A stretch of 32,000 bases of DNA, taken from NCBI GenBank assembly GCA_965279305.1, contig OZ257143.1, forward strand, positions 1,740,001 through 1,772,000, read 5' to 3'. The notes beneath the pieces are model-generated. The model made no database searches. It had not been told where the DNA came from and saw only the letters and a list, made by a program, of their open reading frames with translations. Positions 24,206 through 31,137 of this stretch are shown one piece after another; within the stretch, counting starts at the first letter, position 1; each line of letters starts with the position of its first letter. A program made the position numbers and the translations under genes. Source of the stretch: Gammaproteobacteria bacterium (GTDB taxonomy: Bacteria > Pseudomonadota > Gammaproteobacteria > JBIOEC01).

Positions 24206-27200
24206 ATGAATCTTATGATTTTGCTACTAAAAACGATAGAAAATGCTCCCGTTTCTCAATGGGAAAAGTTCCAAGGCTTTTTTCAAAAATGGCAGGACAA
24301 GTCCGTTCCTAAGGAATTTAGTCAATATCTCCGTGAGTTTTTAATATCGTTAAACATCCCAGCTGAAGACCCAAGTGAAAATATAGCCCAGCTATTTGAT
24401 ACTAATTCTGAACCAAAAGAAGAACTATTAGACGCGCTGCATATATTGGCCTTTTCATCTAACCCGCATGTTCGCTTATGGAGCCGGATCGCTTCATATG
24501 TATTAACCCCTGATGCCTTTGCTCAAAAGCCAAACGAATTACCTCCATTCACTGATGAAAATGAATGGAACAGCCTTTACGAAGAATATTTTTCGGTCTG
24601 GCCTGCAGCCTTTGCCGCGGGTCTTTTAACCTATCAATATACAGTTGTAGATGAAAATGACCAAAGTCAAACCACCTATAAATTCAACGATGCCAGTGCT
24701 GTACTGAAACATAGAAATATTTTAATTTCACGATATCCAGCATCAGCTCCATACATAGCTGATGAAGATGGCTCACTCGCTATTTTGGAAAGAGCGAAGC
24801 TTGATAAGAAGAATCCTCCATTGCTTGAAAACTCAAGTAATATTTCTAGAGTATGTCCTGATATATACGAAAATATTGAAACAGAGTTCGTCTCTAGCCA
24901 ATCAATGATTATCCACTTAATGCTACTTCACGTAGGACTCAATCAAGGTGGTTCAGGTAGCGCAGGCGGCTCAGAAGAGCGGGCTACGGTTCCTGCACAA
25001 CGAGCTACCGAAAACTTTTTTAAGTTAGTCGAACACACAACAGATGACCAAAAAAAAACATTACAAACCACCGGAATTGAAACCATTTATATCCGTTTAA
25101 GAAAACCTGCTAGCGATTTGTCTGCTTGTGTAAACATGAATGCCGGTATTATAGATGAAATATTTAAAGATGATAAAAAACTAAAAAAACTTTTCCAGCT
25201 TAAAGTTTCAAAAAAGAAAAAAGAAAAAAAAGAACAGCCCCAAGAAAAACACGAAGGCGACCATACATTAATCGAAAAAATAAAAGATACTCAACGCCAC
25301 TGTGCTTATGAAAATAATAAAACTTTAAGAAATGGTGATATTGAAACCATTAGAGATTTATTATTATCCGTGCAACATGAAGAATCCCCCACTAAAAATC
25401 TATACAATCAACTAGGTGAGCATGAAATAACCGATTCATTTTTACTTTCCAGTATAGGAGCAGAAATAGAAAGAATGGGTTTTCAGTTATGGATCAAATC
25501 CATATCCGATTTTCATCTTTTAGCTAGTTTATTTAAAAATGATGAGGTTCTTTTAACAAAAATAAAAAAATGGACCTTGTCTAATCTGAAATATACCATC
25601 ACATCAAAAAATGATTTGATCGGCTTTATTATTTCAGCTAAAGACCCTAAGTTTGTCCAAAGATTTTTGAGAAAAAACCCTATTGACAAATCGATATCTA
25701 TTTCAACACACCCTGATCTAGAAGCTCCTTTCAATGATTATTCAAAAGAATTTAGACTATTGATATGGGACTCATTAAATCTTGACGACGAATTTATATC
25801 ACAAATAATCGAAGGCAATAAAGAAAGGTTTTTTGCCTTCGCATATTTTTTATTACAAAGAAATGATGAGCCTAAGAGTTTTGAAACAACATCAAGCCAA
25901 ATAATCCCATTTCCACCGATTCTTCTGGAACCAGAAAAAGCCCAAAATCTTGAAGTTATAAAAAAAGAAGTTAAAAACACAGTAGTCCACTTTCTTTCAG
26001 AAATGGACGAAGCTATTATAAACTCCTTTGATTTTATGAAAGAAACCGCCAGGCAAAATATTTTAGCAAGATCTATAAGAAATAATACAAACCCAACAGA
26101 ACAAGAAATTGAAGAAGAAATTGGAAATATGTTTTTTTACACAGGAGAAAACGACGCTATTCAAAAAAAACCCAAATTTTCTCTTAATTTCAAGGAAATA
26201 TCAGAAACTATTAAAATAGATGGGACAGAAGTAAAAATAAAATTTTCACAAAAACAAAAAGATAAACTGCGTGACTTTTATTACAAAAAATTTGAAATGA
26301 CTTATGTTAGACTCATAAAATCCATATCAGATGAAGATAAGTCTTTAAAACAAAAATTAACAGAATGCCCACCTGAGTATCCTTTGTCTGACACAGCAAG
26401 AATGGATTTGTTTTTACATGCTACAATAACAAATCAAGATGATTATCTAAGTGATGCAATAACAGAAAACTTCAATAAAACTGTTTTTATTGAAAGATTT
26501 ATTCACCGTTTTTTTAATGCTCCTTTAACCAATGAAACATTAATCCTTCTCAATACACAGTTACGCAAACTACTGACCTCCCCAAATCATCCATTGCGGA
26601 TCCCTAGAGGGTACTTTTTTACTGCTCAAAATGGAGTGACAAAAAGTCTAAAAACATTAATAGTGGCCATATTGGAAAATATTATTGAAAAAATAGAGGC
26701 TCCGACAGGATCGGACGAACCTTATATAATCCAAAGAGCAAGACTTGTACATCTATTGGGCATCTTATCGGTCTTTTTAGAATCCATAAAACTGTCTAAT
26801 CCAACGGATTATGCTGATATCAAAAAAAGCATTCGTGATTTTAGAAAATCTCCTAAAATTGCCTCAATTCTCAGTTATGAAGAATTTAGCTCAGACGAAG
26901 AAGACAATTCAGCTGCTGTAGTTCAACCTGTAGTTGCTCAACCTGTAGCTGTGCAACCTGTAGCTGTGCAACCTGTAGCTGTGCAACCTGTAGCTGTGCA
27001 ACCTGTAGCTGTGCAACCTGTAGCTGTGCAACCTGTAGCTGTGCAACCTGTAGCTGTGCAACCTGTAGCTGTGCAACCTGTAGCTGTGCAACCTGTAGCT
27101 GTGCAACCTGTAGCTGTGCAACCTGTAGCTGTGCAACCTGTAGCTGTGCAACCTGTAGCTGTGCAACCTGTAGCTGTGCAACCTGTAGCTGTGCAACCTG

Positions 27201-30063: not shown

Positions 30064-31137
30064 ATGAAAGATACAATTGGTTTAGACGTTGGCCTAGTTG
30101 AGATAAATGCCACAGAAGAAAACGGCTCAAATAATGCTTTTAGTGATTATGCTTCTCTCGATGAAAGATTCCGAGGAGTTAATAATGATAAATCAGAATA
30201 CCTAAGGGATCTGATCAATTATTTTACTCCAAAATCACGAAACAAGGCGGCAGCTGCTTTTCTAGTAGAACTTATTGACAAGAAAAACGATAACTTTCTT
30301 AAACAAGCACGCCAAAATATCTTTTTTATTTTTGATTTAACCGAGAAAAATGGATTAACGAAAAGCTTTGAAGAGGCTTTCTTATTTCTATTAAAGAAAA
30401 TTCCAGAAACAGAATTCACACCTAAAGAAATCTTAAGCATTCTTAAAAAGCTTTCTGAGTTTATCAATCATTTACAATCTATTTATAGCCAGTCTAATGT
30501 CAATCAAAAATGTATTGATACCATTACAGATGCGTTTTATCAACTAAAAATTAAAGTAGTTAATAACGACAATACCGATATCGTTTCGGAAATGATCCGT
30601 GAAATTCAACAGGAAGCTGAATCAAAAAAAGATGCGAAACAAAAAACAGCTTTAATCAATACGATGATAAACGATAGTTTATATACGCTCAGCGTATTAT
30701 CATGGACATACGAAGGAAACGAAACAGATAGAATCATACAGAATGCTCGAACTGAAATATGCACCAAAATAAAAGATGTTATAAATAAGTATATGGGGTC
30801 AAGTTTTTGTTTACAGGCTTTATATTCGAGAGCTTCTTTTAATTTATTAGATGAGGGGCATCAAAGTGTTATGATCCATATGGCCACGATTTCTCCTGAT
30901 CAGTTTAAAAAATTAATTGGGTTTTTAAATGAACTAAAATCAAGCGATCTGATCTCTATACATCGTACTCCTTTCTTTGAAAGATTTCATATTGGTCATA
31001 CTACTGCGTCCACAAAAATTGGGGAAATAATTGAAGCACTTGAATTTGGCCACCAAAATTTTGGCAGAAAATATTTAGTATCTGAACAAGCTCCAGTAAC
31101 TCCAATACCATCTATTCTTTTTTTAGTTCCCCCATAA
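30064..31137 (+). CDS. hypothetical protein (paralog C of the tandem family)
   Basis: 357 aa, collinear with paralog B except for a ~150-aa segment and the first ~60 aa that are present only in B. Confidence 0.8.
   Translation: MKDTIGLDVGLVEINATEENGSNNAFSDYASLDERFRGVNNDKSEYLRDLINYFTPKSRNKAAAAFLVELIDKKNDNFLKQARQNIFFIFDLTEKNGLTKSFEEAFLFLLKKIPETEFTPKEILSILKKLSEFINHLQSIYSQSNVNQKCIDTITDAFYQLKIKVVNNDNTDIVSEMIREIQQEAESKKDAKQKTALINTMINDSLYTLSVLSWTYEGNETDRIIQNARTEICTKIKDVINKYMGSSFCLQALYSRASFNLLDEGHQSVMIHMATISPDQFKKLIGFLNELKSSDLISIHRTPFFERFHIGHTTASTKIGEIIEALEFGHQNFGRKYLVSEQAPVTPIPSILFLVPP

Follow-up and report, generated by a model that had tools for sequence, protein, structure and literature searches.

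A narrowly distributed family of paralogous orphan genes between tRNA-Val and pyrD in a gammaproteobacterium, and its possible export

The A, B and C genes and their shared domain

We analysed a 32,000-nucleotide (nt) stretch of DNA (the window) from a Gammaproteobacteria bacterium (GenBank assembly GCA_965279305.1, contig OZ257143.1, positions 1,740,001 to 1,772,000 of the forward strand) and concentrated on three open reading frames (ORFs), A, B and C, that lie between a tRNA-Val(gac) gene and pyrD. The original prediction had described the three ORFs as co-oriented and had the conserved thrS-infC-rpmI-rplT-pheST-ihfA cluster end at tRNA-Val; both statements hold, as A, B and C are all on the plus strand at the coordinates in Table 1 and tRNA-Val(gac), found with ARAGORN and Rfam, forms the left boundary of the ABC block. 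The remainder of the window consists of housekeeping genes (pnp, a polyprenyl synthase gene, a cytochrome b561 gene, isc genes, mdh, queH, ihfA, pheST, rplT, rpmI and infC), and several ORFs with no Pfam match are interspersed among them.

We found that A, B and C had rightly been called paralogues, with alignments that are significant when properly computed. Between B and C, 40% of 351 aligned residues are identical (E=3e-75). In BLASTP comparisons, residues 1066-1332 of A and 292-571 of B are 23% identical (E=5e-8), and A and C match with E=4e-7. When a hidden Markov model (HMM) was built from six family members, the domain matches ranged from 1e-20 to 1e-161. One further match near the N-terminus of B and C (DLVLVDINTTDEDS / DVGLVEINATEENG) is borderline (E=0.022). 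Two shared modules, an 'upstream helical' one and a C-terminal one of 70 amino acids (aa), had been proposed; the modules are real, but they belong together as the opposite ends of a single domain of about 330 aa. This domain has an N-terminal subdomain with an invariant R...G-x-T-x-S motif and a C-terminal subdomain with the pattern 'ISPDxF...L..LK.SDL'. The NG[LIV]T[KN]S module of the N-terminal end is present twice in A, as predicted; the family HMM matches A once in part, at residues 743-884 (independent E-value, iE, 1.4e-20), and once in full, at 1013-1334 (iE 1.9e-94). The two copies go back to an internal duplication, in which residues 733-889 are 61% identical to residues 1013-1166 (E=2e-56).

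The architecture of the family is modular, with N-termini that vary and a C-terminal domain that is conserved. The extension in front of the shared domain is about 1000 aa long in A and about 235 aa long in B, and C has almost none. In A, an A-type N-terminal region (residues 1 to ~730) is followed by the extra subdomain copy M1 (733-889), by an acidic linker with 20 copies of the pentapeptide VAVQP (~895-1005), and by the shared domain and tail (1013-1332). Of the 19 complete VAVQP units that were compared at this repeat, 18 are identical, which shows that the expansion is very recent. Pfam matches of A to keratin and extensin are artefacts of this repeat, and three overlapping antisense ORFs of 100-126 aa (26886-27270, minus strand) are low-complexity read-through of its 15-nt unit and not genes. 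In the six full members of the family the protein ends in a tail of 15-25 aa. The sequence of the tail is not conserved; its character is, with 12-18 of the last 25 residues being Pro, Ala, Thr, Ser, Gly or Val, at most three Lys or Arg and no Arg among the last six. At most one of the last 25 residues is Glu or Asp in all six members, in agreement with the earlier remark that the tails have no Glu-rich block.

None of the three proteins has a signal peptide or a transmembrane segment, as had also been noted; the highest Kyte-Doolittle hydropathy over 19 residues is 1.46. AlphaFold2 predicts C to be all-alpha: the model has 18 helices and one strand of three residues (predicted local distance difference test score, pLDDT, 70.9; predicted template modelling score, pTM, 0.70). 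The ends of the model are disordered, and a low-confidence loop (residues 75-96) bears the invariant R83 and lies just before the invariant G97-x-T99-x-S101. When we compared the C model with Foldseek to PDB and viral structures, there was no match at E ≤0.001 (best E 0.019; template modelling score ≤0.22); the top matches, all weak, were designed helical-repeat and armadillo-like proteins. Profile searches of PDB with the whole domain, with each subdomain and with the N-terminal region of A gave a best E of 0.034, to unrelated short helical proteins. A model of the N-terminal 730 aa of A was too poor for a structure search (pLDDT 45). Taken together, the predictions suggest a soluble all-alpha family with only a weak ARM/HEAT-like resemblance.

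The block had been described as AT-rich and accessory. It is AT-rich, with a GC content of 0.31-0.38 as compared to 0.40-0.49 nearby; the implication of foreign DNA is not supported by GC content at third codon positions (GC3), which is 0.22-0.26 in A, B and C and 0.24-0.31 in six of seven housekeeping genes of the window. The low GC is confined to codon positions 1 and 2, and the proteins are rich in Ile, Leu, Lys, Asn and Ser. Host-like GC3 combined with a deficit at the first two positions indicates that the AT-richness reflects amino-acid composition and not recent transfer.

Upstream of A and upstream of B we found promoter-like sites. The site of A, a consensus match, reads TTGAGT-N17-TGg-TAGAAT, with an extended –10 element, and a near-identical consensus match (TTGAGT-N17-TGt-TAGAGT) precedes the gene for P0006, an A-type protein from a related genome that is described below. 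The site upstream of B reads TTGACA-N18-TGt-TAGTCT and includes a 23-nt block that is 100% conserved in L001, the locus of a close relative assembled from run SRR28248352. The three sites share the pattern TTGA(G/C)(T/A)-N17/18-TGn-TAG(A/T)(A/G/C)T. We had considered the 23-nt block as the site of a regulator and dropped this idea, since an extended –10 promoter, as in A and the P0006 gene, is simpler. The start codon of C lies 24 nt past the stop codon of B, and B and C are probably co-transcribed. In this arrangement A would have its own promoter, and B and C would form a two-gene operon. Judging from the alignment with P0006, translation of A may begin at Met4 (ATG at 24215) instead of at the upstream ATG (24206); there is no clear Shine-Dalgarno sequence before either candidate start.

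Table 1. Features of the ABC block and its borders (positions in the window; TRF, Tandem Repeats Finder)
Feature	Position	Strand	Details
ORF A	24206-28204	+	1332 aa
ORF B	28294-30039	+	581 aa; B-specific N-terminal region aa 1-~235, shared domain 236-577, tail
ORF C	30064-31137	+	357 aa; essentially shared domain and tail only
tRNA-Val(gac)	23968-24042	-	ARAGORN; Rfam 69 bits; left edge of the block, beside thrS
pyrD (dihydroorotate dehydrogenase)	31153-32000	-	Pfam DHO_dh, E=7.5e-45; right edge, continues past the end of the window
A cassette (promoter, ORF A, weak hairpin)	24102-28223	+	missing at the same site in L001
M1, extra N-terminal subdomain copy (A aa 733-889)	26402-26872	+	
(VAVQP)n tandem repeat	26924-27222	+	TRF; 15 nt x 19.9 copies, 98% matches
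Full shared domain of A with Pro-rich tail (aa 1013-1332)	27242-28201	+	
Promoter-like site of A	24154-24182	+	consensus scan
Promoter-like site of B-C	28228-28268	+	alignments with L001; motif unique in the window; putative function

Distribution, selection and gene turnover

To see how far the family extends we searched very large protein collections. Word-indexed searches of 5.8 billion proteins with B, with full-length A and with residues 1-900 of A returned self matches and a single other protein, P0002, the orthologue of B in L001 (B'). In an exhaustive HMMER profile search, 1.84 billion cluster representatives yielded seven matching proteins: A, B, B', a cluster of C and its L001 orthologue (C'), P0006, P0008 (a weak and partial match) and one spurious eukaryotic repeat protein. 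Pattern scans found no family member in 185,579 GTDB species-representative genomes and none in 241 million JGI metagenome records; the alignment of six members was itself too divergent for deriving search patterns. Sequences flanking 80 proteobacterial thrS loci contained none either. Neither Pfam nor NCBIfam gave a real match for any member, and PADLOC and PHROGs gave none for A, B, C, P0006 or P0008: all NCBIfam matches have E ≥0.013 and score far below the cut-off, and those to Pfam either stem from the repeat or have E >0.01. These searches indicate that the family is almost restricted to one narrow lineage and absent from all libraries searched.

P0006 comes from the same sample as L001 and is encoded at another locus (L082), among ORFs with no Pfam match. 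It is 1137 aa long and aligns to A over its first 495 residues (A residues 3-491, E=3e-17); at its C-terminal end it has the shared domain, matched over the whole length with E=1e-16, and a Pro/Ala tail. Five ORFs with no Pfam match follow its gene (L082 10079-19553, Logan SRR28248352 contig 533381; 501, 389, 575, 176 and 277 aa), none of which matches the family HMM. P0008, which comes from other metagenomes, is 678 aa long and matches in the N-terminal module only (E=3.7e-4); no further protein with this module turned up. In a local HMM search, three stretches of P0008 matched the module; a single one is well supported (iE 5e-8), a second is marginal (0.014) and the third has no significance (80). 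The P0008 gene (L083 8971-11007; L084 1341-3377) lies directly after carA-carB-greA in two independent metagenomes and is followed at both loci by a LexA-like gene (helix-turn-helix and Peptidase_S24 domains) and then by a ribbon-helix-helix/PIN toxin-antitoxin pair.

To see how fast the genes evolve we compared B and C with their orthologues in L001, which adjoin pyrD just as B and C do in the window. B and B' (P0002, 546 aa) are 51% identical at the protein level with a ratio of nonsynonymous to synonymous substitution rates (dN/dS) of 0.45; C and C' (P0005, 357 aa) are 78% identical with a dN/dS of 0.30. In contrast, pyrD is 97% identical with a dN/dS of 0.037. The synonymous divergence (dS) is about 0.4 for both C and pyrD, and the proteins B and C change about 10 times faster than the neighbouring PyrD. 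For the two module copies of A (M1 and residues 1013-1166) we obtained a dN/dS of 0.38 and a dS of 0.70. Ratios below 1 in all three cases show purifying selection on B, C and the modules of A, as expected of real, functional genes, and the homology of the N-terminal region of A to P0006 supports A as a real gene too. Nothing beyond orphan status and low GC speaks for A, B and C being spurious or decaying ORFs in an AT-rich spacer, and we consider this explanation refuted: the ORFs are long and uninterrupted, the similarity among the paralogues is significant, the orthologue dN/dS values are 0.30-0.45, and the AlphaFold2 model is confident for much of C.

The original prediction had also called A, B and C a lineage-specific family expanded by tandem duplication. 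The narrow distribution and the paralogy bear out a family that grew by duplication; a recent tandem burst does not fit. The duplications are old, because A and B are only 23% identical and because B and C were already separate genes when the two genomes split.

To identify what differs at the junction between relatives we aligned the window with L001. The L001 contig begins with the 5' half of tRNA-Val (nt 1-41, identical to the window), and B' starts about 200 nt further on. Next to the tRNA there are about 35-50 nt of homology (L001 ~78-111 against window 24068-24101; score 31, shuffle maximum 26), and L001 168-240 matches window 28224-28296, the ~70 nt upstream of B. Between these two stretches, the A cassette is replaced in L001 by about 60 unrelated nt, so that the cassette is an insertion or deletion difference between two close relatives. 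No repeats flanking its breakpoints were seen by eye, no repeat search having been run, and insertion and deletion are not distinguishable. In a more distant relative (L090, ThrS ~69% identical), we found unrelated ORFs beyond tRNA-Val, with no family member and no pyrD. The absence of A from L001 and the unrelated ORFs of L090 show that the junction is variable in this lineage and that the order B-C-pyrD is stable only inside a narrow clade. Gene content of the family turns over as well: A is missing at the L001 site, and another A-type paralogue, P0006, lies elsewhere in the same sample.

Beyond tRNA-Val, the L090 contig (1-7897; ENA ERZ25039529 contig_151261) carries a 613-aa frame with about 15 copies of a 'YNSHDNTVYAGTxNGNVFYWNGSTWT' repeat and two further ORFs with several Cys whose N-terminal parts of ~140 aa are near-identical; this assembly is rich in frameshifts. 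On the other side of the junction, the neighbourhood of tRNA-Val(gac) and thrS is an old linkage: of 70 other proteobacterial loci whose upstream sequence was long enough, 37 have it, as do the relatives L001 and L090.

A variable junction beside a tRNA gene could mean that the block is cargo of a mobile element, or an anti-phage or toxin system at a tRNA hot spot. The block does adjoin a tRNA gene, content beyond tRNA-Val differs among relatives, and A is a presence/absence polymorphism. However, the block lies on the 5' side of tRNA-Val, and integrases usually target the 3' end of a tRNA gene; there is no integrase or transposase ORF and no att-like repeat by eye, GC3 equals that of host genes, and the B-C-pyrD synteny is kept in L001. 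We consider this explanation very unlikely. A tRNA-integrated island was rejected on the side of the tRNA, the lack of an integrase and of breakpoint repeats by eye, and the host-like GC3. A known defence system or phage protein was rejected since neither PADLOC nor PHROGs gave a match for A, B, C, P0006 or P0008. Polymorphic toxins (Rhs/CDI) have a conserved N-terminal delivery region, a variable C-terminal toxin and an adjacent immunity gene. In A, B and C this layout is reversed, with a variable N-terminus and a conserved C-terminus, and there is no Pfam family match, so that a polymorphic toxin locus was rejected too.

Possible roles of the family

We favour, with a probability of roughly 0.4, the reading that A, B and C are exported proteins that act on a host or a competitor, with the shared domain and tail as a delivery module. 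We are led to it because the family combines fast evolution, a restricted range, gene turnover, a modular architecture, a characteristic tail and the lack of a signal peptide or transmembrane segment. The proteins would leave the bacterium through a specialised secretion system that reads C-terminal features, and their targets would be host or competitor cells. Recognition and delivery (or anchoring) would fall to the shared domain and tail as a common module, with the N-terminal extensions as variable cargo; in A, the (VAVQP)20 tract would separate two copies of the module as an extended spacer that varies in length. The context fits this reading, as the genome is small (a contig of 1.87 Mb) and many ORFs with no Pfam match are scattered among its housekeeping genes.

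The closest functional precedent that we found is the XVIPCD of the X-Tfe effectors, which are delivered by the bacteria-killing type IV secretion system (T4SS) of the Xanthomonadales type. In XVIPCD effectors, varied N-terminal domains are joined to one type of C-terminal domain, through which the T4SS coupling protein is bound; a flexible tail is needed for a later secretion step, and its physicochemical character is kept while its sequence is not (PMC8740702). A, B and C resemble these effectors in their variable N-termini, in a common C-terminal domain with motifs and in a divergent tail. In contrast, the XVIPCD is about 120 aa long with an alpha-alpha-beta-beta-beta fold and has a tail that is rich in Gln and includes Arg among its last six residues (PMC8740702), whereas the domain of A, B and C is about 330 aa long and predicted to be all-alpha, and its tail is rich in Pro, Ala and Thr and uncharged, with no Arg in the last six. 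Also unlike X-Tfe, there is no adjacent immunity gene or VirD4 evident, and no enzymatic N-terminal domain was detected. Because size, fold and tail features all differ, A, B and C are not members of the XVIPCD group, and the precedent would be one of analogy.

Two other groups of secreted proteins are similar in part. The BID domain of the Bartonella Bep effectors is helical and about 100 aa long, and these effectors are reported to combine it with a positively charged tail. Like the Bep genes, A, B and C form a tandem array of paralogues that arose by duplication and that would run from cargo with a delivery domain to a delivery-type domain alone (C). Unlike in Bep, the tail is not basic (K+R ≤3 of 25) and is rich in Pro and Ala, and A, B and C have no Pfam family match. 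Pro-rich and tandem-repeat regions are found in secreted proteins, such as the TonB-like or PspA-like Pro-rich regions and the Ehrlichia TRP effectors. A likewise has a repeated pentapeptide with Pro, probably an extended spacer whose length varies by slippage; however, the repeat is present only in A and is not a feature of the family, and there is no sequence relationship.

Dot/Icm (type IVB) effectors carry secretion information at the C-terminus. A, B and C could be Dot/Icm substrates of a Legionellales-type intracellular bacterium. They resemble the paralogous effector families of Legionella and Coxiella, which are large, soluble and often all-helical orphans with no Sec signal, and which consist of lineage-restricted paralogues with rapid gain and loss, scattered among the housekeeping genes of a small or host-adapted genome; the general features behind the export reading hold here too. 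Legionella ThrS, about 65% identical, is among the nearest of the matches listed. The E-block, a Glu-rich C-terminal signal, is recognised by DotM in a subset of Dot/Icm effectors only, and others are recruited by IcmSW or LvgA (PMC9302130). For an alpha/beta hydrolase of the window (5700-6506, plus strand), the top NCBIfam model is SdbB/C 'Dot/Icm T4SS effector alpha/beta hydrolase'; however, the score is 29.7 bits against a cut-off of 400, and the match is a generic fold match and no evidence of a type IVB system. Several results argue against Dot/Icm substrates. There is no dot/icm gene within the 32-kb window or in the relatives' loci, no E-block in the tails of any of the six members and no NCBIfam or Pfam effector family match, and about 330 aa of C-terminal sequence are conserved in A, B and C and not only a short signal. 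In housekeeping proteins, too, Legionella is no nearer than free-living gamma- and betaproteobacteria. Taken together, these data make Dot/Icm substrates an unlikely explanation.

None of the six housekeeping proteins that we compared has a close relative, and the comparison did not place the host in Legionellales. Among the matches listed, the best for ThrS are metagenome-assembled genomes at 67-69% identity; Legionella and many free-living gamma- and betaproteobacteria lie at about the same distance (ThrS ~65%, PheT ~45%). The 90% clusters of the housekeeping proteins hold only 1-9 sequences; the lineage is therefore rare.

Several results weigh against export as such. Secretion-system genes were found neither in the 32-kb window nor in the relatives' loci that we examined, and Pfam and NCBIfam detected no eukaryote-like or enzymatic domain in the family proteins. 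The tails have neither a Glu-rich E-block nor the basic or Gln-rich features of known T4SS signals (PMC9302130, PMC8740702). The shared domain, at about 330 aa, is far larger than known translocation domains, and as it makes up the whole of C, it could carry out the function itself instead of serving as a tag for delivery. Rapid sequence change and the lack of homologues, moreover, are also compatible with lineage-specific proteins that are not secreted.

Such proteins would be cytoplasmic helical scaffolds, regulators, or nucleoid or cytoskeleton factors, in which the shared domain is functional and the N-terminal extensions modulate it. Consistent with this, there is no signal peptide, transmembrane segment or recognisable secretion signal, C is the domain alone, GC3 is host-like, the position and promoter of B-C are conserved in L001, the genes are under purifying selection, and the helical-repeat-like fold is typical of protein-binding scaffolds. 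In contrast, the amino-acid divergence is about 10 times that of a neighbouring housekeeping gene, members are gained or lost between close relatives, and the phylogenetic range is extremely narrow; a recent Pro-rich repeat expansion (in A) and a tail character that is kept in every member would be unusual for core cytoplasmic functions. We regard a cytoplasmic role as the main rival explanation, possible if somewhat doubtful.

Under the export reading, a further step can be imagined in which the ~330-aa all-alpha domain and tail are an undescribed secretion-recognition or translocation domain, an analogue of XVIPCD and BID with an unrelated fold. With such a domain, the family would become an effector superfamily of its own, possibly with a novel mode of substrate recognition, and the R...G-x-T-x-S loop would be a docking or active site. 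We think this quite improbable.

The family is new to all libraries searched; orphan families of fast-evolving paralogues in small genomes are already well known. If A, B and C are exported, they would represent an additional effector family whose conserved C-terminal module is of a novel type, and they would offer a way to study how a rare, uncultured lineage with a small genome, nearly missing from databases, interacts with its host. If they are not exported, they would be one more lineage-specific orphan family, which is common and of local interest only. The locus also gives a clean small example of family turnover, with PyrD 97% identical between the two genomes, B and C 51-78% identical, and A in one genome only.

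Other genes of the window

Among the housekeeping genes, thrS (22008-23927, minus strand) has a GC3 of 0.44, as compared to 0.24-0.31 in the six others. PheT (17566-19593, minus strand) is 675 aa long, and its Pfam domains start with B3_4 at residue 94; the PheT of another related locus (L085) has the same length. The N-terminal tRNA-binding domain seems to be missing, which fits a reduced genome.

An ORF at 6594-8675 (plus strand) lies in a second AT-rich patch (GC 0.34-0.36). It encodes a 693-aa protein with two DnaC/IstB/DnaA-like P-loop ATPase domains (~286-320 and ~545-580) and with a weak PADLOC match to PtuA only; this protein may be an accessory or defence-type NTPase. Four more ORFs with no Pfam match lie among the housekeeping genes, at 150-1295 (plus strand), 13096-14397, 15398-16195 and 16472-17167 (all minus strand), and none of them belongs to the A/B/C family by the family HMM. 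The ORF at 15398-16195 is 62% identical in L090, and the ORF at 16472-17167, which scores slightly under the cut-off of NCBIfam ABZJ_00895, is conserved in L085.

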